Source of the DNA: an uncultured bacterium
GTDB taxonomy: Bacteria; Gemmatimonadota; Gemmatimonadetes; Gemmatimonadales; Gemmatimonadaceae
Assembly (NCBI GenBank): GCA_963978095.1
Contig: CAXBQP010000025.1
Coordinates: 1 to 42,939, forward strand
Direction of reading: 5' to 3'
DNA length: 42,939 nucleotides
Part shown: in pieces, positions 4,330 through 23,709 of the stretch
Layout of the letters: every line of letters begins with the position of its first letter
Numbering within the stretch: the stretch's first letter is position 1
The notes under the pieces: generated by a model
Told to the model about the DNA's origin: nothing
Databases searched by the model: none
The model's input: only the letters and a program-made list of their open reading frames with translations
Made by a program: the position numbers and the translations under genes

Positions 4330-4745
4330 GAGATGTTTATCCACATTACGATTGCCCCTGGCGCGACCGCTGGAGACCGGCGGAGGCCTCGGAGTTCCCT
4401 CGTCGAGCTGCACAGAGGTGAAAATCCTGACTCGAAGCCCCGAAAGCCGCACTTCTCCAAGATCCTATGTGGAAATGCATATGGATGCAACAATCTAGTT
4501 TATTTAATGTAACATAAACATATTTATATAGCCATTTTACGGCATATGCATAATGTGAAATATTAAGTATGGTTGCCGTGTGGATATGCATAAATCACAT
4601 GCATAAGTGTTTGCATACGGCTTGGGTCGACGCGGTGATCACAAATACTGATATCCACAGCGCCTTGGTCTGGAGCAATCGCGGGCGAGAGAGACACCGC
4701 CCGCACGAGGCGGCATACCACCAATCTCAGACTTATCCACAACCG
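4330..4745. other. Putative chromosomal replication origin (oriC)
   Basis: Perfect DnaA boxes TTATCCACA at 4337-4345 and 4733-4741. Near-perfect boxes TGTGGATAT 4579-4587, ATATCCACA 4651-4659 and TGTGGAAAT 4468-4476. Degenerate TATGCATAA boxes at 4545 and 4585. AT-rich tract 4499-4530 (29/32 A/T) in a GC-rich genome. No convincing CDS. Confidence 0.7.
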
Positions 4746-8745: not shown

Positions 8746-8774
8746 GCGGAAGTCACAGGCGGGCAGGTGCAGGT

Positions 8775-8807
8775 GGACGAGGGGAGCGGAGGTCGCTCCC
8801 CTCGTCC
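8775..8807 (+). terminator. Putative terminator hairpin after ftsH
   Basis: Perfect 14-bp stem GGACGAGGGGAGCG/CGCTCCCCTCGTCC with a 5-nt loop; weak U tract. Confidence 0.6.
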
Positions 8808-8875
8808 CGTTCGGGGGCGGTGTGTTTCCCTGGTCACGGCGCGGTAAACCGTTGTCGCGGCGTGATTTCGGTCAC

Positions 8876-8905
8876 TTGCCGAGCCGCCTGAACCGGGGCT
8901 AAATT
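8876..8905 (+). promoter_or_regulatory. Putative sigma70 promoter of the yggS operon
   Basis: TTGCCG-N18-TAAATT, 8 nt before ATG 8914. Confidence 0.45.
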
Positions 8906-8913
8906 ACCCTGTT

Positions 8914-9600
8914 ATGCCATTCCCAGGACTTGCAGACCGGTTGGCGGATGTTCGGGGTCGTGTCGCCGCAGCGGTTGCCCGTGGTGGACACGGCCAATCG
9001 GTGCGTTTGATCGCGGTCACGAAGACGCACGGCCCCGACGCGGTCGACGCTGCGTACGAGGCGGGCATTCATGACGTTGGGGAGAACAAGGTGCAGGAAG
9101 CGCTCGACAAACGGAGCCGCGTCACAGGTGCGGCGGTCGAGGCCCGTTGGCACATGATCGGGCACCTGCAAAGCAACAAGGTGCGCTTCCTGGATGGTTT
9201 CCATCTCGTGCATTCCGTGGATCGTACCTCGCTGGCAGACACGATCAGTGTGTGGGGGATGAAGCGGGGGATGCCGATCGACGTTCTGGTGCAGGTCAAT
9301 GTCGTCGGGGAGTGGACCAAGGGCGGCTACGCGCCAGCCATGATCGAAGCCGAGGCCGCCCGATTGCACACGCTGCCGGGCCTGAAGGTGCAGGGTGTGA
9401 TGGCGATGGCGCCGTTGGATGCCTCGGAACACGTGTTGCGCACCGTGTTCCAAGGGGCGCGGGCCACACGCGACGTGTTGCGCGCCGCGGGGCACGACGC
9501 CCGCGAGCTCTCGATGGGGATGTCGGGCGATTACGAGATTGCTGTCGAGGAGGGCGCGACGATGGTGCGCCTGGGGTCGATCCTTTTCGGAGCGAGATGA
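8914..9600 (+). CDS. yggS: PLP homeostasis protein, YggS family
   Basis: LIAVTKT (PLP Lys), GENKVQE, WHMIGHLQSNK, LSMGMSGDY, VRLGSILFG. Confidence 0.95.
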   Translation: MPFPGLADRLADVRGRVAAAVARGGHGQSVRLIAVTKTHGPDAVDAAYEAGIHDVGENKVQEALDKRSRVTGAAVEARWHMIGHLQSNKVRFLDGFHLVHSVDRTSLADTISVWGMKRGMPIDVLVQVNVVGEWTKGGYAPAMIEAEAARLHTLPGLKVQGVMAMAPLDASEHVLRTVFQGARATRDVLRAAGHDARELSMGMSGDYEIAVEEGATMVRLGSILFGAR

Positions 9601-10178
9601 CCATGACGGATGAAGCCTTTTATCTGACGGCGATGGACGCCCGCCGATTCGATTTCGGATCGGCGTTGCGCGGGTACGACAAATCGCGCGTCGATCAGTT
9701 CCGGGAGCAGGTCGCCGAGGAGCTCGAGCGTCTCGCGCGGGTGAATGCCGAGTTGGAGTCCAAGGCCCGCAGTTTCCACGAGCAGTTGCGCGCCTTCCGT
9801 GAGCGCGACAAAGCGCTGAACGAGGCGCTGATCTCGGCCCAGCAGATGCGCGCCGACACCAAGGAACAGGCGACGCGCGAGGCGGAGTTGATCGTGCGTG
9901 AGGCCCAGGCGGACGCCGACCGGATCGTCACCGAAGCGCGTGCGTCGACGGCCCGCCTGCGTGCGGAGATCGATGCGCTCGACCGCGCGCGCCGCGGGTT
10001 TCTGGCGCAGATGCGGGCCATGACCGAGCGACAGTTGGCGGAGTTGCAGGCCGCCGAGCAGGCGCCGTCGCCCGTCGCGTCGTTGGGAAGCGCGAGTGCG
10101 ACCGGTGAGGCCGGCGGCTCCTCTGAGGGTGGCGCGCGGCGTTCGTGGATGGATGCCAAGGTTGAGGAAGGCGAGTGA
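9597..10178 (+). CDS. divIVA: DivIVA-domain cell division/polarity protein
   Basis: N-terminal [26 protein letters not shown] followed by a long coiled coil; ATGA overlap with yggS (start 9597 or 9603). Confidence 0.88.
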
Positions 10179-10182
10179 GCGC

Positions 10183-11067
10183 GTGAGTCACGCCCCCACC
10201 TCGGTCGAGCTCGCGGACGGCCGCCTGTTCGGGGCGGCGCACGCGCATACGCGGGCGGCGGTGGACGCTGCCGTGCGTGCGATCCGTGCACGCACGCCCG
10301 GCGTGCCCGAGGTGGCGATCATCCTCGGGACCGGTCTTGGCGCGCTCGGTGCCGCCATCGAGGTGACGCAGACGATCCCGTACGACGAGATCCCCGGCTT
10401 CCCGCTCTCCACGGTCGAGTCGCATCATGGGCGCCTGTTGTTCGGGACGCTCGGCGGCCGGCGGGTGGTGGCCATGCAGGGGCGGTTCCACCGCTACGAG
10501 GGGTACTCGCTGCAGCAGGTGACGTTCCCGGTTCGCGTGCTGCGGGCACTCGGCGCGCAGACGCTCGTCGTGAGCAACGCGTGCGGCGGCATGCATCCGT
10601 TGTGGGCCCCCGGCGACATCATGATGATCGCCGACCACATCAACCTGCTGGGTGACAGCCCGTTGATCGGGGCGAACGACGAGCGTTTCGGTCCTCGGTT
10701 CCCCGATCTGAGCGCCTGCTACGATGCCGCGTTGCGCGCGCTGGCGCGTGAGGTGGCCGTCGCGCATCGCGTCACGCTGCGCGAAGGCACGTACGTGGCC
10801 GTCCCGGGTCCCAATCTCGAGACGCGCGCGGAGTACCGCATGCTCCGACAGTTCGGTGCCGACGTGGTCGGGATGAGCACCGTGCCCGAGGTGATCGTGG
10901 CCGTACACGGCGGGATGCGGGTGCTCGGACTCTCGATCATCACCGATCAGTGTTTGCCTGACGCGCTCGTACCGGCCACGCTCGAGCAGATCATGGCCGT
11001 TGCCGCGAAGGCCGAACCCGTACTGACCACGCTCGTGACGGGCGTGCTGGAGAAGCTTCCCGCGTGA
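10183..11067 (+). CDS. punA: Purine-nucleoside phosphorylase (trimeric PNP family)
   Basis: [43 protein letters not shown] start at 10183 is inferred. Confidence 0.92.
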
Positions 11068-14000
11068 CCGACAAGCAGCCGCACTACGCCGTTCTCCCTC
11101 CGGAACAGCCGGCCCGAGAGATGGAGGAAGCCCTTCTCGCGCGGTGGCGCGACGAGCGCCTGTTCGAACAGACGCTCGCGCAGCACGCGGACAAGCCGCG
11201 CTGGGTGTTCCTGGAAGGACCACCGACGGCCAATGGCCGTCCCGGGATCCATCATGTGTTCTCGCGAACGCTCAAGGACCTGTTCTGCCGCCATCGCTCG
11301 ATGACCGGCCACGCGGTGAGCCGGAAAGCGGGGTGGGACACGCACGGGTTGCCCGTGGAGATCGAGGTCGAGAAGGCGCTGGGCATCAGTGGCAAGCAGG
11401 ACATCGAGCGGTTCGGTATCGAGACGTTCAACGCGCGCTGCCGCGAGAGCGTCTGGACCTACCGGCAGGAGTGGGAGGCGATCAGCGGCCGGATCGGCTA
11501 CTGGCTCGACTATGAGAATCCCTACGTCACGTACTCCAACGAGTACGTGGAGTCGGTGTGGTGGGCGCTCGCCACGCTGTATAAGAAAGAGTTGCTGTTC
11601 CAAGGGCACAAGATCCTGCCGTATTGCCCGCGCTGCGGCACCGCGCTTTCGAGTCATGAAGTCGCCCAGGGCTATGAGGACGTGGAAGATCCGTCGGTGT
11701 ATCTCGCGCTGGATCTCGCGCATCCGGGCGATGGTCGGGTGAAGCGCCGGCGCATCGTGGTGTGGACCACGACGCCATGGACGCTCGTGTCCAACGCTGC
11801 GCTTGCCGTGCATCCGGATCTCACCTACGTCGAGGTGCGCAAGAACGGACGCGACGACTGGTCGCTGGTGCTCGCGGCGTCGCGTGCGGGCGCCGTGCTG
11901 GGGCAGGGATGGGAGGAGCGATGGGAGGTGCTCGCGACACACGCGGGGCGTGAGCTGGCGGGGCAGACGTACACACGCCCGCTCGACTGGGCGGCGTACC
12001 CCGACGGGCAGCACCAGATCATCGTTGCCGAGGAATTCGTGTCGGCCGACGATGGCTCGGGCGTCGTGCACATGGCCCCCGCGTTCGGCGCGGATGACTA
12101 TGCCGCCGGGCAGCGTCATGGACTCAGCTTCCTCCAGCCGGTGAACGCGCGTGGCGAGTTCCCCGCGGACATGCCGGTCGTCGGCGGGTTGTTCGTGAAG
12201 AAGGCGGACCCGCTGATCATCGACGAGCTCAAGAAGCGCGATGTGCTGTGGAAGGCCGGAACGCTCACGCACCCGTATCCCCACTGCTGGCGGTGTCGCA
12301 CGCCGTTGCTGTACTACGCGCGGACGTCGTGGTTCATCAGGACGACCGCCTTCAAGGACCGCATGATGGCGGCGAACGCCGCCGTGAACTGGAATCCGCC
12401 CGAGGTGGGAGCCGGCCGTTTCGGTCAGTGGCTGGAGAACAACATCGACTGGGCGATCTCGCGCGACCGCTACTGGGGGACGCCGCTGCCCGTGTGGGTC
12501 AACGACGCGGACCCGGCCGAGCGGCAGGTGGTGGGGAGCTACGCCGAACTCGCGGCGCTGTCCGGGCGCGAGCTGCCGGCCGACTTCGATCCGCACAAGC
12601 CGTTCATCGACCGCTACACTTGGCCCGCGCCGTCGGGTACTGGCACGATGCGGCGAGTCCCAGAGGTGATCGACACCTGGTTCGACTCGGGCTCCATGCC
12701 CTTTGCGCAGTGGCACTATCCGTTCGAGCATGCCGACGAGTTCCGTGCGCACTTCCCCGGCGATTTCATCGCGGAGGGGGTCGATCAGACACGCGGCTGG
12801 TTCTATTCGCTGCTCGCGATCGCGACCGGACTCGGCGACGATCTGCACCCCGGGGCGCAGCGCCACGCCACAAGCCCGTACCGGAACGTGGTGGTGAACG
12901 ATCTGGTGCTCGATGCCGCGGGGCAGAAGATGTCCAAATCGCGTGGCAACACCGTGGCGCCGGCGGCGGTGCTCGAGCGGCACGGTGCCGACGCCGTGCG
13001 ATTGTTCCTGGTGAGCGCCAGCCAGATTTGGAAGCCGCGCAGTTTCGACGAGGCCGTGATCCGCGACACCGCGGGGCGCTTCCTCCTCACACTGAAGAAC
13101 GTCTACAAGTTCTTCGCGGAGCTCGCCAATTTCGGGTGGACGCCCGGTGCAGCGGATCCGCGACCGGAAGAGCGGGCGTTGCTCGATCAGTGGATTCTTT
13201 CGCGCCTCACGGCCACCGAGGCCGACGCGAACCGGTTGCTCGAGGCCTTTGATGCCACGAGCGCGGCGCGTGTGGTGATGGAGTTCGTGGACGAGGACTT
13301 GTCCAAGTGGTACGTCCGCCTCTCCCGTGATCGGTTCTACGACGTGTCAGCGCCGCACAACCGGGCCGCATTCGCGACCTTGCACGAATGTTTGGTGGTG
13401 GTGTGCCGGTTGCTCGCCCCGTTGGCGCCCTTCCTGCCGGATTGGATGCATCGCGAGCTCACGGGCACCTCGGTGCATCTCGCGCCCTACGCCCGCGCGA
13501 CGCCGTTCGCGGTGCAGCCGGAGCTCGAGGTCGCGATGCGGGAGATCCGCGCCTTGGCGACGCTGGGTCGCGCCGCGCGGGAGTCGGCCGGTGTGAAAGT
13601 GCGGCAGCCGCTGGGGGCGATGATCTGCGTGACCGGTCGGTTGTCGGCCGACGCCACCACGTGCGTGCGTGCCCTCGCGCCGTTGCTGCAGCTGGAACTG
13701 AACCTGAAGGCGATCGAGTTCGCCACCAGCGCCGACGCCTTGGTGTCCCTCGAGGCCAAGCCGAACTTCCGGACGTTGGGCAAGCGATGGGGGAAAGAGA
13801 CCCCGCGTGCCGCGGCCGCGATCGCCGCACTCGACAGCGATACGCTGCGCGCCTTCGAGAACGGCACGCCCGTGATCATCCGCGTCGATGACACCGCGCA
13901 TGCACTGCTCGCCGACGAGGTCGGGATCCAGCGGCGTGCCAGTGGCGCGTTGGTCGTCCAGGAGGACGGGACGCGGTTCGCCGCACTCGATCCGGTGATC

Positions 14001-14279
14001 TCGCCGGCCTTGCGGAGTGAAGGGCTCGCGCGCGAGGTGGTCAGCCGGGTGCAGCGCATGCGCAAGGAGACCGGTCTGCAGGTCAGTGACCGGATTCAGC
14101 TCGAAATCAGTGGACCGGATGCGGTGCGTGATGCGGTCGCCGCGCACCGCGAGTGGATCGCCGGCGAGGTCCTTGCGGCCTCGCTCGTCACCAAGGATGC
14201 GACCGACGTAGCTTTCACCGCCGTTGCCGTCGACCTCGACGGCATCACGGCACATTTCGCTCTCACCAAGGACCGCTGA
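11064..14279 (+). CDS. ileS: Isoleucine--tRNA ligase, type 2 (IleRS2)
   Basis: [45 protein letters not shown]. Long IleRS2-type C-terminus ([19 protein letters not shown]) with no C-terminal Zn finger. Confidence 0.97.
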
Positions 14280-14281
14280 CG

Positions 14282-14707
14282 ATGCCTGGTACTGGCCCCA
14301 CGACCGGCGAAAAGAAGTTCAAGCCCATGCCGAAGAAGCAGATCGCGTACTTCGAGAAGCGGTTGCTCGAGGAACGTCGTCGTGTGGTGAAGGAGCTCGG
14401 GCATTATGACGAGACCTTCGGGTCCTCGCCCCAGGGTGCGGACGGCGACCTCTCGTCGTACTCCTTCCACATGGCGGATCAGGGGACCGATGCGATGGAG
14501 CGGGAGAAGGCCGCGCTCTTCGCCAGCCAGGAAGGACGGTTCCTGTGGCACATCGACCAGGCCCTGCGGCGGTTGTACCGCACGCCCGAGACGTACGGCA
14601 TGTGCCACCAGTGCAAGGGCGAGATCCATTTCGATCGTCTCGACGCTCTCCCGCACGCGCGGTTCTGCATCGATTGCAAGCAGCGGGAGGAAGATGCAAA
14701 GAAGTGA
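14282..14707 (+). CDS. TraR/DksA C4-type zinc finger protein
   Basis: Coiled coil with tip HMADQGTD, YGMCHQC...RLDALPHARFCIDC. Confidence 0.9.
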   Translation: MPGTGPTTGEKKFKPMPKKQIAYFEKRLLEERRRVVKELGHYDETFGSSPQGADGDLSSYSFHMADQGTDAMEREKAALFASQEGRFLWHIDQALRRLYRTPETYGMCHQCKGEIHFDRLDALPHARFCIDCKQREEDAKK

Positions 14708-15302
14708 GCCGACCGCGGCGCAAGGGCGGGCGTTCTGGTCGATTGCAGCGGCCGTCGTGCTGGCCGACGCGTTCACCAAGATCGTGGCGGTGGACGCCCT
14801 GTCGCCGGTGTACCTCCCGCGGCGCGTGATCGGCGAGGCGGTGCGATTCACGCTCGTGTACAACCCCGGCGCGGCGTTCGGGCTTCACCTCGGACCGTGG
14901 TCGCGCGGCATCTTTACCGGGCTCACATTGGTGGCGCTCGTCGTGCTCGGGCAGTTGCAGCGTGCGACGCGTGCCGGCGACTGGCTGCGGACCGTCGCGG
15001 TCGGGCTGGTCTGTGGTGGGGCCGTCGGGAATCTCCTGGACCGGCTGAAGTCCGCGCGTGGTGTCGTCGATTTCATCGACGTGGGGATCGGCAGTGCGCG
15101 CTGGCCGACGTTCAACGTCGCCGATATCGCGGTGACCTGTGGCGCCGTGTTGTTGGCGTTCGTCCTGTGGCAGGAAGACATGCGGGACCGGAGCGCAGCG
15201 GCGCACGCTGTGCCCTCGTCGGCGGCTGACCTTCCGGCGCCTGCGGCGCGCGAGGCGTTTGCCGAGGGAGCCCATGGAACGGACGCAGCGATTCACGGTT
15301 GA
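14694..15302 (+). CDS. lspA: Lipoprotein signal peptidase II
   Basis: DAFTK, YNPGAAFG, GAVGNLLDR, GVVDFID, PTFNVAD. Confidence 0.95.
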   Translation: MQRSEPTAAQGRAFWSIAAAVVLADAFTKIVAVDALSPVYLPRRVIGEAVRFTLVYNPGAAFGLHLGPWSRGIFTGLTLVALVVLGQLQRATRAGDWLRTVAVGLVCGGAVGNLLDRLKSARGVVDFIDVGIGSARWPTFNVADIAVTCGAVLLAFVLWQEDMRDRSAAAHAVPSSAADLPAPAAREAFAEGAHGTDAAIHG

Positions 15303-16254
15303 GGACGGGGACGACGAGCGACTCGACGTCCTGGTCGCCCGCCGCCTCGATCTCTCGCGCACGCAGAGCGCGACGCTCATTGCCAACCGGGCCGTGACCG
15401 TCAATGGTCAACCGGAGAAGGCCTCGTTCCGCGCGGAGGTGGGAAGCGAGATCGTGGTGACCTCGCCGGAACCCGTGGCGCATCCCGTGCTCGCCGAGGA
15501 TATCGCGATCAGCGTCGTGTTCGAGGATGAGCACATGATGGTCGTCGACAAGGCGGCCGGCATGGTCGTGCATCCGGCGCCGGGACATTGGAGCGGCACG
15601 CTGGTGAACGCGCTGAAAGGTCGCGGGCAGGCGCTGGCCGACGCCGGAGACGAGGATCGCGCGGGCCTCGTGCATCGCCTCGACAAGGACACGTCGGGGT
15701 TGATCGTCGTGGCCAAGTCCGAGGTGGCGCATCGGGTGCTCAGCAAGGCGATGGCCGAGCGCAGGGTGTCGCGCCGGTATGCCGTGCTGTCCTGGGGGCA
15801 CATCGACGCCCCGGCGCTGACCGTGGACAAGCCGATCGGCCGTGACCCGAATGACCGGAAGAAGATGGCCGTCCTCGCGGGCGGCCGCCCGGCAAAGACT
15901 GATTTCGTGAAGCTCGCGCGTTTCGACTCCGTGGAGTTGTTGCGGGCACACCTGCACACGGGGCGGACGCATCAGATCCGCGTGCACATGGCGTCGGTTG
16001 GGCACCCCGTCGTGGGAGACGATACGTACGGCGGTGGTGGCGCACGCCGCATCGTGGCCCTTCCGCCGAAGCGGCACTTCCTGCATGCCGCGTGGTTGGT
16101 GCTCAAGCATCCGGTCAGCGGGGAGTTGCTGGATTTCCGCTCTGTGCTCCCCATGGATTTGCGGACCTCGCTGGTCGCGGTCAGCGGCATGCCGGAGTTG
16201 CGGTCCGTGCCGGATCCGCTGGATTTCCTCGGCTTCTATGCCATCGAGGGCTGA
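15274..16254 (+). CDS. rluD: RluA-family 23S rRNA pseudouridine synthase (RluD-like)
   Basis: S4 domain RLDVLVA, HRLDKDTSG (catalytic Asp), TGRTHQIRVH, LHAAWL. Confidence 0.9.
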   Translation: MERTQRFTVEDGDDERLDVLVARRLDLSRTQSATLIANRAVTVNGQPEKASFRAEVGSEIVVTSPEPVAHPVLAEDIAISVVFEDEHMMVVDKAAGMVVHPAPGHWSGTLVNALKGRGQALADAGDEDRAGLVHRLDKDTSGLIVVAKSEVAHRVLSKAMAERRVSRRYAVLSWGHIDAPALTVDKPIGRDPNDRKKMAVLAGGRPAKTDFVKLARFDSVELLRAHLHTGRTHQIRVHMASVGHPVVGDDTYGGGGARRIVALPPKRHFLHAAWLVLKHPVSGELLDFRSVLPMDLRTSLVAVSGMPELRSVPDPLDFLGFYAIEG

Positions 16255-17035
16255 GGAGCGGCTCCGGTTCGAGACCTTCGTGGTCGGCGCGGGCAACCGC
16301 GCTGCCGTCCTGGCGGTCACGGCGGTCGCCGAGCATGTGGGGCGCTCCGACAGCCCGCTGATCATCACCGGCGGCGTGGGAACGGGAAAGACCCATCTCC
16401 TCCGCGCGCTGCGGCATTTCGTCGCCGGAAGATTCCCGGGGCGTCCGCACTTGGTGCTCGATCCGCACGCGCTTGATGCGATCGCCGGTTCCCCCGAGCG
16501 ACGCGCCGAAGTGCTGCAGCAGGCCCAGCGCGCGTTCCTGATCGCACTGGACGATCTGTCGCACCTCGAGGGGAAGACCGCCGCGTGCCAACTGCTCGCG
16601 CGCATCGTGGACGCCGCCGACATGTCGCAAGTCGTCCTGACCGCGGATCGTCCGGTCGAGCAGCTTGCTGGGCTTGGCGCATCGCTGCGCAGCCGGCTCG
16701 CGGTCGGGGTGCAGGTGGCGATCGATCCGCCGGACCTGCAGACGCGTGCCGCACTCGTGCACGCGGCGGCACTGGAATACGGGGCCACGTTGACGGACGC
16801 GGCCATCGACGAAATCGCGCGCTTCGCGATCACGGACGCGCGGCAGTTGTTCGGCTATGTGCGACGACTCGTGGCCACCCAACGATTCCAGGTGAAGGTG
16901 GAATCGCCGCGGCGACCGGAGCTGGTGGAGCGCGCGAGCGAGGGCTTCGAGGATCTCCTCGTGTTCGCGGATCCCGAGAAGATCGTGTGGGACTGGCCGG
17001 AGATGTCGGCGCGGTTGATCGAGGAGCTCGACTGA
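16238..17035 (+). CDS. DnaA/Hda-family AAA+ ATPase comprising DnaA domain III only
   Basis: FETFVVGAGN, Walker A GGVGTGKTHLL, Walker B LIALDD, sensor I LTADRP, box VII LRSRL, PPDLQTR, sensor II DARQL. No domain I/II and no domain IV. Confidence 0.88.
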   Translation: MPSRAEERLRFETFVVGAGNRAAVLAVTAVAEHVGRSDSPLIITGGVGTGKTHLLRALRHFVAGRFPGRPHLVLDPHALDAIAGSPERRAEVLQQAQRAFLIALDDLSHLEGKTAACQLLARIVDAADMSQVVLTADRPVEQLAGLGASLRSRLAVGVQVAIDPPDLQTRAALVHAAALEYGATLTDAAIDEIARFAITDARQLFGYVRRLVATQRFQVKVESPRRPELVERASEGFEDLLVFADPEKIVWDWPEMSARLIEELD

Positions 17036-18663
17036 TGGCGATCAAGGGAAGCCTGCGTGAGGCGAGCCTCGCCGACGTCCTCCAGCTGCTGGCGATGGGG
17101 CAGAAGACCGGGTGCCTGTCGGTGACGGATCGGGGGAGCGTTGGGGCGATCTACTTCGAGCACGGACAGATCACGCACGCGGCGCTGGCGAATCGCCGCG
17201 ACCGGCTGGGCGAGGTCCTCGTGCGCAGTGGTGTGGTCAGCGCGGAACAGCTGCAGGTCGCGCTCGACGCCCAAGTCGCGCGTCGCGGGCAGAAGCTCGG
17301 TGAGGTGCTCGTCGAGTTGGGGGCGATCTCGTCGCCGGATCTCGAACGCGCGGTGCGGGGGCAGATCGAGCACATCGTGTTCTTCCTCTTCACGTGGATG
17401 GACGGCACCTTCAACTTCGAGCCGGATGTCATGCCGCAGGATCAGGTGTTCCTCGTGGCGATGAACGCGGAGTCGCTGCTGCTCGAAGGTGCACGCCGCG
17501 TGGACGAATGGTCCCTGATCGAGAAGAAGATCCCCTCGTTCGGCGTGGTGTTCCAGTTGGACCATCGCAAGCTCGAACTGATGACGCCGGAGCTCTCGCG
17601 TGAGCAGGAGCGTCTGGTGCCGCTGATCGACGGACTTCGCGACGTCTCGGCGCTCGCCGACGAGTGTGGTCTTGGCGAGTTCGAGGTGGGGAAAGCGCTG
17701 TACGGGCTGGCCATGGCCGGATATCTCACCATTGTGCCGAAACGTTTGGAGAGTGTCGTCCGGGTCGTGGATTCCCTTGCCGAAGAGCAGGTGGCGCTGG
17801 GCACGGCGCTCTACCGGGCCGGGATGTACGCCGACGCCGAGGAGGAGTTCCGGCGCGTGCTCCAACAGCGGCCGCGCGACTCGAGGGCGCGGAGTTTTCT
17901 TGGCCTCTTGCAGTTGCGCGGCGGGCGGTGGGCAGCCGCTGCCGCGCAGTTCGAGGAGGCGTCCCGCACCCGTCCGGTGGCGTGGCATGTGTTCCATCAC
18001 CTCGCGCTCGCGTACGAGCGCGCCGGGCAGTTGGTGCAGGCGCGTGAAGCGCTGCTCGAAGCGGCTGCGCGCGGCGGATCCTCGGATCCGCGTGTCCTCC
18101 TCTCGTTCGGCGTCATCGCGCTGCGCGAGGGTGACTTGACCACCGCGGCGACCTTCCTTGATGATGCCCGCGCTGCGTATGGCTCGCGCGTCGTTCCCGC
18201 GGTCTGGTTCCATTACGCCGGCCTCGTCGCTGCGCTCGCCGGTCGGACTTCGGCCGCGGTCGCTACGCTCCGCGAGGGCGTGGAGGCCCATCCGAAGGCC
18301 GCTCGGCTCCACAACAATCTGTCCGTCGCCCTCGAGCGCAACGGCGCTCATGGCGATGCGCTCGTCACGGCGACCGCTGGCGCCAAGATCGACCCGGGCA
18401 TTCCGCAACTCGCCAAGAACATCGGCGATGAGCAGTTCCGGCGTGGCGCGCTGGATGATGCGCAGGTGGCGTACCAGCGCGCGGTCACGATCGACGAGAC
18501 GCTCGGCCCCGACGTCTGGATCAAGCTGGGGGAGATTGCGGCGGCGCGTCATCAGATGGGGGACGCCCGTCGCTGCTGGGAGCGGACGCTCGCGCTGGAT
18601 CCCGGCAATCCGACGGCGACCGCGCAGTTGGCCTCCTTGGCGGAACACCCGTTGCATGACTGA
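17035..18663 (+). CDS. DUF4388 (PATAN-like) protein with an inserted MshEN motif pair, a wHTH-like segment and C-terminal TPRs
   Basis: GSLREASLADVLQLL..TGCL..IYFEHG...W.DGTFNF...LLLEGARRVDE; RLGEVLVRSGVVSAEQLQVALDAQ; multiple TPRs; TGATG overlap with the upstream gene. Confidence 0.88.
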   Translation: MAIKGSLREASLADVLQLLAMGQKTGCLSVTDRGSVGAIYFEHGQITHAALANRRDRLGEVLVRSGVVSAEQLQVALDAQVARRGQKLGEVLVELGAISSPDLERAVRGQIEHIVFFLFTWMDGTFNFEPDVMPQDQVFLVAMNAESLLLEGARRVDEWSLIEKKIPSFGVVFQLDHRKLELMTPELSREQERLVPLIDGLRDVSALADECGLGEFEVGKALYGLAMAGYLTIVPKRLESVVRVVDSLAEEQVALGTALYRAGMYADAEEEFRRVLQQRPRDSRARSFLGLLQLRGGRWAAAAAQFEEASRTRPVAWHVFHHLALAYERAGQLVQAREALLEAAARGGSSDPRVLLSFGVIALREGDLTTAATFLDDARAAYGSRVVPAVWFHYAGLVAALAGRTSAAVATLREGVEAHPKAARLHNNLSVALERNGAHGDALVTATAGAKIDPGIPQLAKNIGDEQFRRGALDDAQVAYQRAVTIDETLGPDVWIKLGEIAAARHQMGDARRCWERTLALDPGNPTATAQLASLAEHPLHD

Positions 18664-19519
18664 CGAAACGCCGTCCGCCCTCAAGGCCCGCTATTACGGG
18701 ATCGACCAGCGACTCGATGCCGGTCTGGTCGAGAGCGAGCGCGCCGCGGTGAAGCAGGAGATTGTGCTCCTGTTCCGCCATGTGGAGCAGCAACTCGCCG
18801 AACTCGCGCAGCTGAAGGACGACATCAGGCGGCTCGTCGAGAAATGGAAGGCGCAGCAGGCCGCCGCGGCTACGTCGCTCGCTCCTCAGTTCAGCGTGGA
18901 ACGGCCAGCGGTGCAAGCGGATCACCTCGGGGCGTCGACCTTCATCGACAAAGGATGGAGTCGGCTGTCACTCGGCGACCACGAGGGCGCGGAAGCGGCG
19001 CTGATGCGCGCCCTCGAACTGTCGCCGAACGATCCCACGGGCGAATCGTTGCTCGGATGGGCTCAGATGCTGCAGGAGAAGTTCGAGCCGGCGTTGGCGA
19101 ACTTCCAGAAGGTCCTGATCCGTGAGCCCGCGAATGCGCTGGCTCGGGTCAATGTGGGGTATATCTGCCTGAAGCGGCGGACCTTCGCCGACGCGATCGA
19201 GCATCTGTCGAAGGCGATCCGACTCGGCAACGATCCGAAGGCGTCGTTATACGCGCATTTTTATCTCGGGCTGGTCTACCTCGAGCGCGAGATGTTCGAG
19301 GACGCGGAGAACTTCTTCCTCAAGACGATCGTGCTCGGGCCCAACCTGATCGAGGCCCATTGCGAGCTTGGCTGGGCCTACTGGCTGAACGACCAACGCC
19401 CCCAGGCGCTGGAGAGCTGGTCGCGAGGCGCGGCGGCGAACAAGTTCAATCCGTGGGGCAAGCGGTGTGCTGAGCTGCTGAAGGCCGCCGCCAACGGCGC
19501 GGAGCTCGTACGCGGCTGA
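18656..19519 (+). CDS. Coiled-coil plus TPR protein
   Basis: N-terminal coiled coil, then about 5 TPRs (e.g. ARVNVGYICL, AHFYLGLVYL, AHCELGWAY); 8-nt overlap with the upstream gene. Confidence 0.85.
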   Translation: MTDETPSALKARYYGIDQRLDAGLVESERAAVKQEIVLLFRHVEQQLAELAQLKDDIRRLVEKWKAQQAAAATSLAPQFSVERPAVQADHLGASTFIDKGWSRLSLGDHEGAEAALMRALELSPNDPTGESLLGWAQMLQEKFEPALANFQKVLIREPANALARVNVGYICLKRRTFADAIEHLSKAIRLGNDPKASLYAHFYLGLVYLEREMFEDAENFFLKTIVLGPNLIEAHCELGWAYWLNDQRPQALESWSRGAAANKFNPWGKRCAELLKAAANGAELVRG

Positions 19520-19542
19520 TCGTCCGCGCCGTCGCGGCGGCG

Positions 19543-20550
19543 ATGTTGACCGCGCTTGCGTCCGCGAGTGCGGCGCCTGCCGCCGGTGCGCAAGGGCCGC
19601 CGAGTGGGGCCGGGTACCTGGTTGTCCGCAGCGGACGGGTGTCCGTGGTCGCCGCTCCCGGGGACGAACCCTTGGCCCGGTCCCTGCTCGCCGCGGCGGT
19701 GGGGATGGACTCGTTCCCGGGGCTACCGCGCCCCCGCCAAGGGGTGGAGCTCTTCGTGGCCCCGGATACCCGGACCTTTCATCGCTGGAGTGGGGCCGGT
19801 GCCCCCGAATGGGGGGCCGCCGTGGCGTATCCGGCATTCGGACGGGTGGTGATGCAGGGGCGCTTGGCGCCGTCATCGGCCGGCGATCCCTTCCGGGTCC
19901 TGCGGCACGAGATGGCCCATCTGGCGCTGCACGAGTCGCTGGGAGACCTCCCCCCGCGCTGGTTCGACGAGGGGTATGCCACGTTCGTCGCCGGGGAGCT
20001 TCCGGGGGACGGTCTGATGACCGTCAACTTGGCGCTGGCGCTAAGAGGACTCCCCCATCTGAGCGAGTTGGACGGGTTGTTCGTAGAGGGGGAGCAGGGA
20101 GCGCAGGCCGGCTATGCGCTGTCGCTCCGGGCGGTTGAGGCCATTGCCGGAGGAGACCCCGAACGGGGGCTGTCGCTGTTTTTTCAGTATTGGAGGGAAA
20201 CCGGCTCCTTCGACCGGGGGTTGCGTCGGGCGTACGGGGAAACGTCGGAGGAGTTGGACGCGCGGTGGCGCTCCCGCGCCCGGTTGCGCTACGGGGCCTT
20301 GGCGATGCTCACCGACGCGACGTTGGGATCGTGCGTTTTGCTGGTCCTCTTGGGTCCGCTTTGGTGGCAGCGCCGAGCGCGGGATCAGAAGCGGATGGAG
20401 CGGCTGAGGATCGCGGACGCCGAGCAGGAGCGTCGGGAGCGGGAGGGCGCGTTGGCCGAGCTGCTCGGCCTCGGAGGCGAGGCCCCTCGGTCCGGTGCGG
20501 CCTCTCGGCATGGTGAGGATGGCGCCGCGGATCCGGTGGGGAAGGAATAG
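19543..20550 (+). CDS. Peptidase MA-like zinc metallopeptidase with a C-terminal TM segment
   Basis: LRHEMAH (HEXXH) plus PRWFDEGYA (third ligand Glu); hydrophobic helix near the C-terminus; start codon uncertain. Confidence 0.8.
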   Translation: MLTALASASAAPAAGAQGPPSGAGYLVVRSGRVSVVAAPGDEPLARSLLAAAVGMDSFPGLPRPRQGVELFVAPDTRTFHRWSGAGAPEWGAAVAYPAFGRVVMQGRLAPSSAGDPFRVLRHEMAHLALHESLGDLPPRWFDEGYATFVAGELPGDGLMTVNLALALRGLPHLSELDGLFVEGEQGAQAGYALSLRAVEAIAGGDPERGLSLFFQYWRETGSFDRGLRRAYGETSEELDARWRSRARLRYGALAMLTDATLGSCVLLVLLGPLWWQRRARDQKRMERLRIADAEQERREREGALAELLGLGGEAPRSGAASRHGEDGAADPVGKE

Positions 20551-20598
20551 GGCAGAATGACGAGTTCATTAATTCAGGGTCCACCTGTTAGTTTTTCC

Positions 20599-20627
20599 TT
20601 GACACTATCTATATAGGGGCGTAGACT
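20599..20627 (+). promoter_or_regulatory. Sigma70 promoter for the small ORF and tRNA-Val
   Basis: TTGACA-N17-TAGACT. Confidence 0.8.
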
Positions 20628-20636
20628 CAGCCGACT

Positions 20637-20807
20637 ATGACGGAACAGAAACAGGCGGGGGGCGGCACGTCCGCCTTGAAGTGGGGAGTTGCGGCCGTTG
20701 TGCTGGCGGCCGGCTATGCGGACCTCGCGCGGGGTGGTATGACGTTGGCCCCGATCTTGTTGGTGGTCGGGTACGCGGTGCTCGTACCGGTGGCGATTCT
20801 CTCGTAA
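20637..20807 (+). CDS. Small (56 aa) two-TM membrane protein, possibly DUF3098-like; absent from the ORF track
   Basis: MTEQKQAGGGTSALKWGVAAVVLAAGYADLARGGMTLAPILLVVGYAVLVPVAILS; TLAPILLVVGY resembles the DUF3098 C-terminal motif (from recall). Confidence 0.7.
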   Translation: MTEQKQAGGGTSALKWGVAAVVLAAGYADLARGGMTLAPILLVVGYAVLVPVAILS

Positions 20808-20813
20808 GAATTC

Positions 20814-20887
20814 GGGCGAATAGCTCAGCTGGTTAGAGCACCTGCCTTACACGCAGGGTGTCGGGGGTTCGAATCCCTCTTCGCCCA
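20814..20887 (+). tRNA. tRNA-Val(TAC)
   Basis: Acceptor GGGCGAA/TTCGCCC plus discriminator A; D arm GCTC/GAGC; anticodon stem CCTGC/GCAGG with loop CTTACAC; T loop TTCGAAT; CCA not encoded. Confidence 0.97.
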
Positions 20888-20979
20888 TCGCAGGACCTTG
20901 GCAAGACCCGGGCACTCCAGAGTGGGGTGCCGAGAATAACTCAGTAGGCTGGCGGGATCACCGTTCTGGAGGATTCACA

Positions 20980-22692
20980 GTGATGGCTCGGTATGAGGCC
21001 CGCGCGTTCGCGGCGATTGCGACGGCGCTCTTCGTTGGTATGGCATCCCCCGCTGGCGCACAGTACTCGCGCGGCGCGAATCCCAATGCGCCCCGTTTGA
21101 TGATCGGCACGCTGAAGAGCGACGACAAGAAGTTGGGGCCGGATGCCGCGGAGTCGCTCCGCGATCGGATCGCGGGTGATGTCTCGATCCGCGAGCTCTA
21201 CGTGTTTCCGAAGAACGACATCAACAACAACCTGGAGCAGTCGGGCTACTCCGTGACCGAGGCGCTCTCGCCCTCGGACGCGGTGCAGCTCGCCAAGATG
21301 CTGCGCGCCGACGAGTACATCGAGGGGTCGGTCCAGAAGACCGCCACGGGCTTCACGATCGAGGCGAGTGTGGTACTCGCCCGCGATGCGTCGCTGGTGC
21401 AGCCGCTCGGCAGCTTCTCGGGACCGAAGCTCGACAATGTTTCCGCGCAGGTGTCCAAGGCCTATCAGAAGGCACATGGCGTCTTTGACAGCGAGAAGCG
21501 CTGCCGCCTTGCGGTCCGTGAGCAGAAGTGGTCGGAAGTCGCCAAGGAAGTGGCGGAGGGGGTCAAGACCTTCCCGGGGAGCACCTGGATCCGTTTCTGC
21601 CAGATGCAGGCGTTGACCACACAGAAGAAGCCGGCCGCCGAAATCCTTCCGGTGCTTGAGGACATCCTCAAGCTCGACCCGAAGAGCCGGCCCGCGTTGG
21701 CCGAGGCCGTCAATCAGTACGAAGCGGCTGGCCAGACGGACAAAAAAATCGATGCCCTGATGAAGCTGTATCAGGCCGATCCGACCAACAGCCGCCTGCA
21801 GCTGACCGTGGTCAACGAGCTGGCCGCGGCCAAGAAGTTCGATCTCGCCAAGCCGATGATCGAGAAGTCGGTCGCCGATAACCCGGGCGACGCCGGGTTG
21901 GCCAAGCTGTACTGGCTGATCCTTGGCGCCACCGACGACCTCAAGAAGTTCGTGAAGGTCGGTGAGGAGATGGTCCAGATGGACACTTCGCTCGCCGACG
22001 CCGATTACTTTGACCGCATGATCTCGGCCTACTCGGCCGACAGCAACTCGGCGAAGGCCGCGGCGACCGCTGCGAAGGCGACCGCCAAGTTCCCGAAGCG
22101 TGATGATTTCTGGGCCAAGCGTGGCCAGTTCGAACTGAAGGGCGGGCAGACCGCCTTGGCGATCAGCTCGCTCAAGCGGGCGCTCGAGATCAATCCGAAG
22201 ACCCCGGGCGCGCGCCTCATCATTCTGAAGTCGTATCACGACGCGGGGCAGTGGGACACGCTCTACACCGCCATGCATGAGGCCATCAAGGCGGGTGAGG
22301 ATGCTGGAACCGTGGGGCAGTTCGCCGTCAGCGCGTCGAGCAAGCTCCTGTCGGCCGCGCAGAAGGCGGAGCCGAAGACCATTCCCGACTTCGAGAAGGT
22401 CCTGACCTGGGTGGCGTACGCGGATAGCACGCTCACCGACAAGGCGATGAAGAACAGCGGCAAGTTCGTCTCCGGTGTCGCGTACTTCTTCCTCGGAACG
22501 TTGCACTACGCCGACCTCACCAAGAGCAAGCAGTGCACTGATGCCAAGGCGGCTCAGGAAGCCTTCACCAACGCGCAGATCAACCTGCCGGCGGGTGGTG
22601 CGACGAACGCCGATGTCATCAAGCAGCTCCTCGGCAATCTGGCGCAGTACTCGCCGGCGGCCGACCAAGCGGTGAAGGGCCTCTGTAAGTAG
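20980..22692 (+). CDS. Secreted TPR-repeat protein with a possible CsgG/TolB_N-like N-terminal domain
   Basis: GGAGG SD; signal peptide ending ASPAGAQ; AKMLRADEYIEGSV segment; multiple TPR-like helical repeats. Confidence 0.82.
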   Translation: MMARYEARAFAAIATALFVGMASPAGAQYSRGANPNAPRLMIGTLKSDDKKLGPDAAESLRDRIAGDVSIRELYVFPKNDINNNLEQSGYSVTEALSPSDAVQLAKMLRADEYIEGSVQKTATGFTIEASVVLARDASLVQPLGSFSGPKLDNVSAQVSKAYQKAHGVFDSEKRCRLAVREQKWSEVAKEVAEGVKTFPGSTWIRFCQMQALTTQKKPAAEILPVLEDILKLDPKSRPALAEAVNQYEAAGQTDKKIDALMKLYQADPTNSRLQLTVVNELAAAKKFDLAKPMIEKSVADNPGDAGLAKLYWLILGATDDLKKFVKVGEEMVQMDTSLADADYFDRMISAYSADSNSAKAAATAAKATAKFPKRDDFWAKRGQFELKGGQTALAISSLKRALEINPKTPGARLIILKSYHDAGQWDTLYTAMHEAIKAGEDAGTVGQFAVSASSKLLSAAQKAEPKTIPDFEKVLTWVAYADSTLTDKAMKNSGKFVSGVAYFFLGTLHYADLTKSKQCTDAKAAQEAFTNAQINLPAGGATNADVIKQLLGNLAQYSPAADQAVKGLCK

Positions 22693-22714
22693 CCCTCTCG
22701 CTCCGATGCTCCTC

Positions 22715-22745
22715 GAAGCCCGCCGGTCCCTGACCGGCGGGCTTC
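22715..22745 (+). terminator. Intrinsic terminator
   Basis: Perfect 14-bp stem GAAGCCCGCCGGTC/GACCGGCGGGCTTC followed by a pyrimidine-rich tract. Confidence 0.75.
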
Positions 22746-22767
22746 TCCGTTCCGTTATCTTTCTCCT

Positions 22768-23709
22768 GTGACCGACGCCTCCCGCTTCGACTCCCCCTAC
22801 CACGCCCCCGTCATGGTGGCGGAGATCCTCGACGCCTTCCGGGGTGCGCGGCGCGCCCTGGATTGCACGCTGGGTGGGGGCGGGCACTCACTCGCCTTCC
22901 TCGAGGCGGGGATGGACGTGACTGGACTCGACCGCGACCCCGTCGCGATCGCGGAGGCGCGGGGGCGGCTCGCAGGCTTCGAGGCGGTGGGGCGGTTCCG
23001 GGCCGTACTCACCAACTACGCCGACGCCGATCACGCCCCAGCCCTCAACGGCCAGACGTTCGATGCCATCCTCCTCGACCTCGGTGTCTCCAGCCATCAG
23101 TTCGACGACGCGGGTCGCGGTTTCTCCTTTCGCGAGGGCGCGCCCTTGGACATGCGGATGGAGGGGGATGCGGGTGGGGAGAGCGCGGCTGCGTGGTTGA
23201 ATGGGGCGAGCGAGCAGGAGCTCACGCGCGCGTTCAAGGAGTTCGGGGACGAACCCAAAGGGGGACGGCTCGCGCGGGAAGTGATCCTTCGGCGTGAGAG
23301 TCGGCCGTTGGCGACCTCCGACGACCTGGTCGGGGCCATCCGTCGGGTGCTGGGGCCCCGGTCGGGCGCCCCCGAGTTCGCGCGGCTCTTCCAAGCGGTT
23401 CGGATCGCCGTCAACGACGAGCTCGACGGCCTGGCCCGCGCCCTCCCCGCGCTCCGTGACAGACTGACCCCTGGAGGCGTCCTTGCAGTGATCGCCTATC
23501 ACTCGGGGGAGGACCGGCTGGCCAAGCACGCCTTCCGCGAGTGGAGCTTGTCGTGCATCTGTCCCCCCAAGCAGCTCCAGTGCACCTGTCGCGGACGTCC
23601 ACTCGGCTTGCCGCTCACCAAGAAGGCTCTCTCCGCCACCTCCGAGGAGACGGCCCGGAACACGCGCGCCCGCAGCGCGCATCTGCGCTGTTGGCGACGG
23701 GCCGAGTAG
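22768..23709 (+). CDS. rsmH: 16S rRNA m4C1402 methyltransferase
   Basis: YHAPVM, DCTLGGGGHS, DLGVSSHQ, PLDMRM, FQAVRIAVN, YHSGEDR, RARSA. Confidence 0.96.
   Translation: MTDASRFDSPYHAPVMVAEILDAFRGARRALDCTLGGGGHSLAFLEAGMDVTGLDRDPVAIAEARGRLAGFEAVGRFRAVLTNYADADHAPALNGQTFDAILLDLGVSSHQFDDAGRGFSFREGAPLDMRMEGDAGGESAAAWLNGASEQELTRAFKEFGDEPKGGRLAREVILRRESRPLATSDDLVGAIRRVLGPRSGAPEFARLFQAVRIAVNDELDGLARALPALRDRLTPGGVLAVIAYHSGEDRLAKHAFREWSLSCICPPKQLQCTCRGRPLGLPLTKKALSATSEETARNTRARSAHLRCWRRAE

Follow-up and report, generated by a model that had tools for sequence, protein, structure and literature searches.

A DnaA-type ATPase without a DNA-binding part and its PATAN/MshEN/TPR partner: a candidate signaling or polarity module in Gemmatimonadota

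We report that a DnaA-type AAA+ ATPase without a DNA-binding part and a scaffold protein with PATAN, MshEN and tetratricopeptide repeat (TPR) domains are encoded side by side as a conserved two-gene unit in Gemmatimonadota. The window, by which we mean the whole stretch of 42,939 nucleotides that was analyzed, is contig C25 of a 2.98-Mb metagenome-assembled genome (MAG; 101 contigs, 91% complete) of this phylum, labeled G000; labels of the form G### denote related genomes, f1 to f12 families and P#### proteins. A previous reading of the letters alone (the sequence-only reading) had marked three genes with overlapping ends at 16238..19519 as a module, and their coordinates, overlaps and intact frames proved correct. 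Gene 1 encodes the ATPase, gene 2 the scaffold and gene 3 a further TPR protein (TPR3).

We propose that genes 1 and 2 represent the conserved core of a Gemmatimonadota-specific signaling or polarity system, with gene 3 probably a leftover neighbor from the same cluster. Gene 1, an initiator-clade AAA+ protein that lacks the DNA-binding part, would most likely act as an ATP-dependent, self-associating switch, because its ATP-binding and arginine-finger residues are kept. Its C-terminal peptide (EKIVWDWP..ARLIEEL) would dock in the concave groove of the gene 2 TPR superhelix, and the PATAN scaffold with its MshEN insert would sense cyclic di-GMP (c-di-GMP), so that the ATP state of gene 1 and the c-di-GMP input of gene 2 would converge on one complex. 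In most relatives the pair is coupled in translation to the gene of an MglA-like GTPase and lies within a cluster of cheA/cheC/cheR/cheB/cheW, roadblock and TPR genes, and these surroundings would point to cell polarity or type IV pilus activity, not replication; in the clade of the window, che and mglA genes were deleted along with the second ATPase module, leaving a minimal but selected version. Taken as a whole, we give even chances to the reading that the pair works in polarity or pilus control rather than replication, with an initiator-type switch that is driven by ATP and anchored to a scaffold acting as a c-di-GMP receptor.

Results

A DnaA-type AAA+ core with a conserved tail

Bac_DnaA (PF00308) is the sole specific Pfam family matched by gene 1 (residues 7-160, 80.2 bits against a cut-off of 23), and its closest solved relatives are structures of DnaA domain III (8bv3, 1.4e-25). 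As had been read from the sequence, domains I and IV are missing (no DnaA_N or Bac_DnaA_C among the Pfam matches at E<=0.01), while Walker A, Walker B, sensor I, the box VII arginine and the sensor II arginine are kept; we name these motifs by alignment to DnaA and by the motif positions of that protein. Across 38 family rows, K51, T52, D105 and D106 are invariant and R153 and R202 nearly so; sensor I reads TADR (residues 135-138), and a serine stands where box VII of DnaA has its upstream arginine. The initiator-specific motif of DnaA lies between Walker A and Walker B, and the corresponding stretch of gene 1 (residues 61-100) has diverged, scoring about 0 against both modules of the tandem relatives described below.

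Gene 1 falls under the curated cut-off for DnaA itself (TIGR00362, 127.8 vs 343.9) and under all three cut-offs for Hda (TIGR03420, 70.4 vs 194.8; NF005982, 21.8 vs 268; NF051883, 16.2 vs 300), and we reject its membership of Hda on these scores. The N-terminal beta-clamp-binding motif of Hda is presumably of the QL[SD]LF type, and no QL.L string is found anywhere in the protein. Its acidic, tryptophan-containing end (residues 236-265, GFEDLLVFADPEKIVWDWPEMSARLIEELD) is real and conserved across the family in the form EK(I/V)VW(D/E)WP...(A/D)R(L/V)(I/V)E(E/D)L. A protein search returned seven clusters of 264-265 residues at 67-100% identity (six of them at 67-82%), followed by ordinary DnaA proteins at 31-37%; catalytic residues and the tail motif are retained in 7/7 of these mini forms.

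A tandem two-module family and the origin of the mini form

A direct search of 61 related genomes for gene 1 found the 265-residue form only in G000, G026 (82% identity) and G020 (77%). The best 30 loci comprised 24 tandem two-module open reading frames (ORFs), three frames cut by contig ends and three single forms; in seven genomes (G005, G009, G011, G015, G022, G023 and G032) the only match was of the dnaA type. The tandem protein consists of a first AAA+ module (m1), a helical linker domain of ~115 residues, a second module (m2) and a tail, EK(I/V)VW(E/D)WP....R..E(E/D)L(R/D), and in G012 its modules are 41-45% identical to domain III of G000's own DnaA. An AlphaFold2 (AF2) model of the tandem protein is confident for both modules and the linker, with the tail alone disordered (predicted local distance difference test, pLDDT, 31-45); the mutual arrangement of the modules is unreadable because the predicted template modeling score is only 0.46.

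In a maximum-likelihood tree of all rows except four partial or unclear proteins (P0011, P0119, P0093 and P0069), with seven DnaA rows as outgroup, the three single forms fall within the m1 clade (Shimodaira-Hasegawa-like approximate likelihood ratio test, SH-aLRT, 100) on a stem of 1.55 changes per site, and m2 forms a separate clade (SH-aLRT 99). A sliding comparison of P0001, the gene 1 protein, found residues 1-240 to be m1-like and the last 25 to resemble the m2 tail, and the linker profile (A2) has no match in G000 or G026; G000 holds one Bac_DnaA match besides dnaA. Judged by its sequence, P0001 is therefore best described as the minimal version of the family, an m1 core plus tail from which the linker and second module have gone. 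The opposite polarity, with the single-module form ancestral, is rejected, as that form nests inside the m1 clade of a genus otherwise carrying the tandem form.

Other architectures combine m1, linker and tail (G096, G150) or m1, linker, an m2 without Walker A, an acidic stretch and tail (G263), and the m1 ATPase and tail are common to every architecture seen. In G263 (f7; L063 9268-11293) other residues stand in place of the GxxGxGKT of the second module, the tail follows a long low-complexity stretch of acidic character, and from its sequence this module looks like a pseudo-ATPase; G370 (L062) has lost the same Walker A, and its frame as printed stops within the module.

Against 1.84 billion cluster representatives, the linker profile matched 387 proteins at E<=0.001, the named ones from Gemmatimonadales and annotated as 'DnaA/Hda family protein', 'DnaA ATPase domain-containing protein' or 'AAA family ATPase'; against PDB sequences it found nothing better than E 0.65. 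Linker-like units also recur as 6-21 tandem repeats in giant proteins (P0144, 3090 residues; P0163, 1281 residues; P0186, P0194, P0205, P0223, P0245, P0256 and P0267), so that the linker seems to be a free-standing repeat unit; scans of P0144, P0163 and P0186 gave no Pfam family and no informative name. In two Gemmatimonadales proteins (P0271, 590 residues; P0234, 560 residues), annotated '[Fe-Fe] hydrogenase large subunit C-terminal domain-containing', a linker-like domain is C-terminal.

Counts here and below include genomes flagged as unpublished, namely G006 and G036 among the 61 relatives and G036, G103, G141 and G222 in the 401-genome sample. Alignments A1-A2 contain L019 (G006), A1-A3 contain L027 (G036), and the tree contains both; none of our conclusions depends solely on these genomes.

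A PATAN scaffold with an MshEN insert and a TPR superhelix

Gene 2 matches DUF4388 (PF14332), the PATAN domain, at 120.7 bits against a cut-off of 25, in two stretches, and in the genome search the match is split between profile positions 1-76 and 48-122, consistent with a PATAN domain divided by an insert. It is the sole DUF4388 protein found in G000. Residues 57-108 match the MshE-related c-di-GMP motif model NF053729 at 56.3 bits (cut-off 38). MshEN domains bind c-di-GMP through two tandem 24-residue motifs, RLGxx(L/V/I)(L/V/I)xxG(L/V/I)(L/V/I)xxxxLxxxLxxQ, as set out in passages of PMC5013675. By the patterns given there, motif 1 of gene 2 (57-80, RLGEVLVRSGVVSAEQLQVALDAQ) agrees exactly at every position, and motif 2 (87-110, KLGEVLVELGAISSPDLERAVRGQ), which follows a 6-residue spacer, agrees with the authors' relaxed pattern. 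In the 15-row alignment A5, R57, L58, L62, Q80, L92 and L103 are invariant and G59, L73 and G89 nearly so, and Q110 is nearly invariant in a 10-row alignment. When the first 240 residues were used as a profile, it matched MshEN domains of known structure at query positions 54-112, with PilF (6f8l, 7.2e-17) ahead of PilB (6olj/5tsg, 1.6e-10) and MshE (5htl, 4.5e-10). The insert is thus predicted from its motifs to be a c-di-GMP receptor and should bind the nucleotide.

A conserved middle region separates the PATAN/MshEN part from TPR repeats that run from ~245 to 538. In a fold search with the gene 2 model, the best matches were consensus-TPR and O-GlcNAc transferase (OGT)/SPY TPR superhelices, and neither the PATAN nor the supposed winged helix-turn-helix (wHTH) part, both modeled at low confidence, found a match. 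Of the DUF4388/MshEN/wHTH/TPR content originally proposed, three elements stand, and the wHTH comes down to a secondary-structure prediction at 177-235 with no family or fold match; gene 3 was correctly called a TPR protein, with repeats found by Pfam. A contig scan with P0004, the gene 2 protein, returned only two close relatives and, from a Saprospiraceae MAG, one weak match to TPR (24% identity, E 4e-6).

Predicted docking of the gene 1 tail in the TPR groove

A single controlled complex prediction was made for gene 2 (10-row alignment) with gene 1 (38 rows) as the scored partner. The interface score (ipSAE) was 0.77 (runs 0.73, 0.77 and 0.78), and the best of three controls reached 0.00; a value of 0.77 is reached by 116/157 solved complexes and 2/215 mismatched pairs, a calibration that is only rough here, where our own alignments were used. 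The runs share at least 66% of contacts, with a partner pLDDT of at least 69. Confidence in the interface is confined to the tail (gene 1 residues 236-264), which lies along the concave TPR face (gene 2 residues 260-494), with the tightest predicted pairs between K248, I249 and V250 and residues 424-465 and between R259, L260 and I261 and residues 291-356. The predicted groove is built from N427, N428, V431, Q458, K461, N462, D465, H321, W391, L291 and R353, among which L291, H321, W391, N427, V431, Q458, N462 and D465 are invariant. Positions conserved at >=90% make up 18/45 of the interface and 57/248 elsewhere in the TPR domain (odds ratio 2.2, p=0.025). The model supports binding of the tail in this groove. 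The idea of a repurposed initiator ATPase coupled to a c-di-GMP-linked TPR scaffold, put forward from the sequence, is supported.

Co-occurrence of the pair and purifying selection

In a 401-genome sample of the phylum, the linker profile matched in 273 genomes and the scaffold profile A5 (first 240 residues, E<=1e-55) in 284 (Table 1). Comparing the lists by hand, we found both genes in 272 genomes, the linker only in one (G342), the scaffold only in 12 and neither in 116. The pair is thus present in 272 of the 285 genomes having either, and the two genes do co-occur beyond the window, on which the sequence-only reading had made its case depend. The scaffold-only set includes G000 and G026, which carry the linker-less mini form, and several of its matches at ~1e-57 to 1e-62 may be a PATAN/TPR paralogue. 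Both genes have been lost in several separate genera, and related genomes are not independent in these counts.

Table 1. Genomes matched by the linker and scaffold profiles in the families of the 401-genome sample
Family	Linker (A2)	Scaffold (A5)
f1	74/93	82/93
f2	161/166	162/166
f3	5/5	5/5
f4	5/7	6/7
f5	2/2	2/2
f6	0/30	0/30
f7	22/70	22/70, same genomes
f8	4/4	4/4
f9-f12	0/23	0/23

Ratios of nonsynonymous to synonymous substitution rates (dN/dS; Nei-Gojobori) for G000 against G026 and G020, respectively, were 0.116 and 0.162 for gene 1, 0.088 and 0.125 for gene 2 and 0.193 and 0.115 for gene 3, compared with 0.049 and 0.085 for ileS, 0.046 and 0.070 for rluD, 0.092 and 0.125 for lspA and 0.154 and 0.185 for the peptidase gene downstream, all of them rough values because dS, at 0.5-1.2, is near saturation. 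The constraint acted on the mini form itself, since G000, G026 and G020 share the deletion. A decaying dnaA fragment, raised beforehand as one way in which the idea could fail, is rejected on the two values for gene 1.

Remnants of a larger che/mglA cluster

We used tblastn to set the window against loci of 18-20 kb taken from 16 further genomes, and annotated that of G031 with Pfam. Ten loci from f1, f2, f3, f4, f5 and f8 share a full layout, which opens with rluD, (a receiver domain), cheA, cheC, a 900-residue TPR protein, a PATAN/TPR protein, a TPR/roadblock protein, a roadblock protein and a 159-residue protein, continues with the mglA-like GTPase gene, the tandem ATPase gene and the PATAN/MshEN/TPR gene, and closes with cheR, cheB, (an AAA_22 ATPase), cheW genes, TPR3, peptidase_MA, the TPR lipoprotein gene and rsmH; TPR3 was not seen in the f4 and f5 loci. 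In most relatives, roughly 16 genes occupy the interval between rluD and the dcw genes. A full set of che genes surrounds the pair in most lineages, as do genes for the MglA-like GTPase, for three proteins of the roadblock type and for additional PATAN and TPR proteins. The mglA-like, ATPase and PATAN/MshEN ORFs of G012 run into or directly adjoin one another, the first two overlapping. Only some clusters (G031, L037 13638-14720; G033) have a gene for an AAA_22-type ATPase, situated after cheB and before the cheW genes. The neighborhood survey suggested with the sequence-only reading, covering che and roadblock/MglB genes, is therefore strongly positive in relatives.

The ATPase gene lies immediately 5' of the PATAN/MshEN/TPR gene in 15/15 loci with an ATPase gene, and all 15 keep the dcw-adjacent position; che, roadblock and mglA flanks are present in 10 of the 15 and absent from five (G000, G026, G020, G370 and G263). 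The window clade (G000, G026 and G020) has rluD, the mini ATPase gene, the scaffold gene, TPR3 and the peptidase gene, without the MglA-type GTPase and roadblock genes beside the PATAN gene, and two f7 genomes of 3 and 1 contigs (G370 and G263) have rluD, the tandem ATPase gene, the scaffold gene and the peptidase gene, without che, mglA or TPR3, behind an upstream order of yggS-divIVA-ileS-rluD. These reduced layouts identify the ATPase and scaffold as the conserved unit.

TPR3, found in 53/61 relatives, adjoins gene 2 in the window because cheR to cheW have been deleted, and elsewhere it travels with cheW; in G049, which has lost cheR..cheW, it likewise follows the PATAN/MshEN gene directly. 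The three genes of the window are a deletion remnant of the larger cluster and not, as originally supposed, a module in their own right. A natural deletion series of the cluster can be followed within one genus (G005 and G011; G009, G015, G022, G023 and G032) to complete loss: only cheB-cheW-cheW-TPR3 is left in G005, and what remains in G011 is a piece of cheW together with a TPR3 gene divided between two frames. In 5/61 relatives neither TPR3 nor the ATPase is present.

Elsewhere in G000, at its 91% completeness, there is no CheW family match, and cheA, cheC, cheR and cheW queries found nothing. The genome has two GGDEF matches, six T2SSE/PilB-PilT-type ATPase matches above cut-off and a canonical mglA with an mglB-like gene upstream, beside recR and dnaX (C1:52924-54026; L064 4913-6026). 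The mglA paralogue of the cluster has been lost, and this canonical pair is the remaining GTPase pair.

Gene order and features of the window

From yggS (8914) to the peptidase_MA-like gene (end 20550), successive genes on the + strand overlap or are separated by gaps of <= ~24 nt, in the order yggS, divIVA, a PNP-type phosphorylase gene, ileS, a dksA-type gene, lspA, rluD, genes 1-3 and the peptidase gene; 3' of the latter follow a 430-nt gap, a TPR lipoprotein gene, rsmH and the dcw cluster through ftsZ. The ATG of gene 1 lies 17 nt within the 3' end of rluD, the TGA of gene 1 and the ATG of gene 2 have one base in common (TGATG), and genes 2 and 3 overlap by 8 nt (ATGACTGA) (Table 2). A scan of 8500-23000 gave two promoter-like (1.1 expected) and 10 terminator-like sites (6.7 expected), numbers no higher than chance would give; from rluD to gene 3, the one such site on the + strand was a weak stem within gene 2. 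Operon structure is accordingly inferred from spacing, which makes the suggested co-transcription with divIVA plausible and is not reinforced by the scan. Full-length dnaA of G000 is on another contig (C3).

Table 2. Coordinates of features in the window
Feature	Position	Strand	Basis or remark
rluD	15271..16254	+	upstream border; che/mglA cluster starts after rluD in relatives
Gene 1, mini DnaA-like AAA+ ATPase (P0001, 265 aa)	16238..17035	+	matches m1 of tandem family plus family tail
Walker A GGVGTGKT, residues 45-52	16370..16393	+	G48, G50, K51 and T52 invariant in 38 family rows
Walker B LIALDD, residues 101-106	16538..16555	+	D105 and D106 invariant in 38 family rows
Box VII region LRSRL, residues 150-154	16685..16699	+	R153 at DnaA arginine-finger position, nearly invariant
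Sensor II region DARQL, residues 200-204	16835..16849	+	R202 nearly invariant in 38 family rows
C-terminal tail, residues 236-265	16943..17032	+	family motif; predicted docking peptide for gene 2 TPR groove
Gene 2, PATAN(DUF4388)/MshEN/TPR scaffold (P0004, 542 aa)	17035..18663	+	Pfam, NCBIfam, model
MshEN-type insert within PATAN domain of gene 2	17203..17364	+	motifs 57-80 and 87-110
Superhelical TPR domain of gene 2, residues ~245-538	17767..18648	+	pLDDT > 90; predicted tail-binding groove
Gene 3, TPR3 (P0003, 287 aa)	18656..19519	+	helical N-terminal region, then TPR repeats
Peptidase_MA-like gene	19543..20550	+	downstream cluster border, kept in all layouts examined

The order yggS-divIVA-..-ileS-(dksA-type)-lspA-rluD (8914-16254) is kept across the class, and presumably resembles the Bacillus ylmE-divIVA-ileS-lspA-rluD region. 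At the start of the window, an 891-residue frame (3-2678, +) has amidohydrolase (43-344), aldehyde dehydrogenase (342-656) and MaoC dehydratase (750-853) matches and may be a PaaZ-like fusion read through with an upstream in-frame gene. Frames at 2683-4071 (-), 4027-4512 (+), 41245-42111 (+) and 42127-42939 (+) have no Pfam match at 1e-5. Near-identical DNA, at 39-86% of sampled words, occurs in aquatic or freshwater metagenome runs from at least six studies (2015, 2025), none of the runs being recorded as RNA.

Discussion

Relation to known systems

Hda/HdaA proteins are DnaA-related AAA+ proteins that inactivate DnaA-ATP in Proteobacteria, and gene 1 resembles them as a stand-alone AAA+ protein of the DnaA domain III type, without domain IV and with the arginine-finger position kept. 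It differs in scoring below the Hda cut-offs, in having no N-terminal clamp motif, in its conserved C-terminal tail with predicted TPR docking and tandem two-module ancestry, and in its family partners, which are PATAN/MshEN/TPR proteins, an MglA-like GTPase and che genes. Gene 2 shares a PATAN domain with an alpha-helical insert with the PATAN regulators (cyanobacterial PatA-type; Myxococcus), but has no receiver domain, joins PATAN to an MshEN insert and a superhelix of 8-9 TPR repeats, and is obligately paired with a DnaA-type AAA+ protein, a pairing not mentioned in the literature searched. PATAN gene neighborhoods were reportedly described by Makarova et al. in 2006. As in the neighborhoods described in passages of later work (PMC4316618; bioRxiv 10.1101/2021.06.11.447907), gene 2 lies in relatives with an MglA-like GTPase, roadblock and che genes.

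Gene 2 has in common with MshE/PilB/PilF-type ATPases the two tandem 24-residue motifs, scoring above the NCBIfam cut-off, but its MshEN part sits within the PATAN domain of a scaffold rather than at the N terminus of a secretion or pilus ATPase, and its second motif is relaxed. TPR domains are known to hold extended or C-terminal peptides, as Hop does the EEVD ends of Hsp70/Hsp90 and O-GlcNAc transferase does with its asparagine ladder. The predicted course of the acidic, hydrophobic gene 1 peptide along a concave face with invariant Asn and Gln is similar, yet this peptide is ~29 residues long and Trp-rich, its interface spans ~8 repeats, and its binding is a prediction. Finally, in combining che, an MglA-type GTPase, roadblock and TPR proteins, the cluster of the relatives recalls the MglA-SgmX-FrzS/Frz system of Myxococcus xanthus as presented in parts of PMC7519303, PMC3441718 and PMC7668184; here, however, the parts lie in one cluster, together with PATAN proteins and a DnaA-type AAA+ protein, neither of which is known from the Myxococcus system, and the likeness is one of parts list.

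The DnaA-like AAA+ domain, PATAN, MshEN, TPR and the che/MglA neighborhoods of PATAN genes are all known kinds. PATAN + GspE_N architectures are already in databases, according to passages of bioRxiv 10.1101/2021.06.11.447907, and the PATAN/MshEN fusion itself is therefore not new. We found no account in the literature searched of a DnaA-type ATPase with PATAN, MglA or che genes; table S2 of PMC4316618, outside the search, may list such cases, and 'DnaA' does not occur in the passages of that article covered. What we did not find in print is a DnaA domain III family as the fixed partner of a PATAN/MshEN/TPR protein, its tandem, linker and tail architecture, and its place in a che/MglA cluster. 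The view that no characterized system has this composition thus agrees with our search as regards the combination.

A switch for polarity or pili, and what speaks against it

Initiator-clade AAA+ proteins (DnaA, Orc/Cdc6, DnaC and Hda) are known from DNA replication and transposition, and self-associate in an ATP-dependent manner. On this analogy, gene 1 would oligomerize with ATP, and the kind of output that we favor comes from its surroundings. PATAN domains of Synechocystis bind the pilus motor PilB1, and MglA/MglB genes are often near PATAN genes, as reported in passages of bioRxiv 10.1101/2021.06.11.447907 and, for the latter, PMC4316618; Myxococcus MglA acts with TPR proteins on type IV pili, according to parts of PMC7519303, PMC3441718 and PMC7668184.

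Several observations weigh against a c-di-GMP-responsive switch for polarity or pili. The motility or polarity output is argued from neighbors that G000 has lost. In MshEN motif 2, K replaces R and the hydrophobic pair is A-I, and the spacer comprises six residues rather than five. The conservation enrichment at the predicted interface is modest (p=0.025), part of the docking score may be likeness, TPR-peptide complexes being common among solved structures, and TPR3 or a different TPR protein could just as well, or in addition, be a receptor for the tail. The cluster is eroding within its genus, where G005 and G011 are without the pair, and 5/61 relatives lack ATPase and TPR3; the long stem of the mini form could reflect relaxed constraint at some stage, and dS is near saturation in the comparisons that argue for selection.

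The f7 loci, in which the pair lies between rluD and the peptidase gene without che or mglA, further suggest that the core may be che-independent. The pair could then have such a role at its fixed place, for example c-di-GMP-dependent control of the division site or envelope, with che and mglA inserted later. The window clade, which retains the pair without che genes and under purifying selection, is consistent with this, as is the constancy of the dcw-adjacent place in 15/15 loci (divIVA..rluD upstream; peptidase_MA, TPR lipoprotein and dcw downstream). Position by itself is weak evidence, however, and we found no direct link to any division protein, whereas in 10/15 loci spread over six families the ATPase gene directly follows the mglA-like gene in the che cluster, and the PATAN partners named in the passages cited above are pilus motors and MglA/MglB; we consider this alternative unlikely.

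It is more doubtful still that the three genes are a functionless relic of the departing cluster, open only for lack of elapsed time. The nested deletions within one genus, the very long stem branch of the mini-ATPase clade and the failure to find CheW in G000 would all fit a relic, but in three genomes that have diverged since the deletion (dS ~0.9-1.0) all three ORFs are intact with dN/dS of 0.09-0.19, like neighboring housekeeping genes, catalytic residues and tail motif persist in every mini form, and seven public protein clusters preserve its length. Modulation of replication initiation, whether by co-assembly with DnaA or by an Hda-like donation of the arginine finger that inactivates DnaA-ATP, is very improbable: the kinship of gene 1 and the G012 modules with DnaA domain III, the kept arginine-finger position and the proximity of divIVA and dcw are outweighed by scores below the Hda and DnaA cut-offs, the lack of a QL.L clamp-type motif, the divergence between Walker A and B, a tail predicted to bind the TPR scaffold, a dnaA on a different contig and constant partners that are not replication genes, and nothing that we found ties the module to DnaA or to initiation, as had been suggested from the sequence.

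Implications

The family is more interesting than the window's own copy, a reduced derivative. An ATP-driven switch of the kind proposed here would extend the initiator ATPase fold to signaling or polarity, and the PATAN domain, poorly understood, would gain a defined partner. With ~29 peptide residues seated in a TPR groove, the interface offers a compact target for testing; the deletion series in one genus shows which parts stand alone, and the mini form offers a ready-made minimal construct. In a bolder version, to which we give a rather low probability, the DnaA-derived AAA+ protein without DNA binding would form ATP-dependent filaments of the initiator type on the c-di-GMP-sensing PATAN/TPR scaffold and, together with the MglA-type GTPase and che proteins, act as a hitherto unrecognized, nucleotide-driven switch for polarity or positioning. 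If true, it would be the first example of cell polarity drawing on the ATPase fold of replication initiators, the switch would be class-wide and present in ~2/3 of sampled genomes of the phylum, and the 265-residue form of the window would be its natural minimal version, an ATPase core with a docking peptide.

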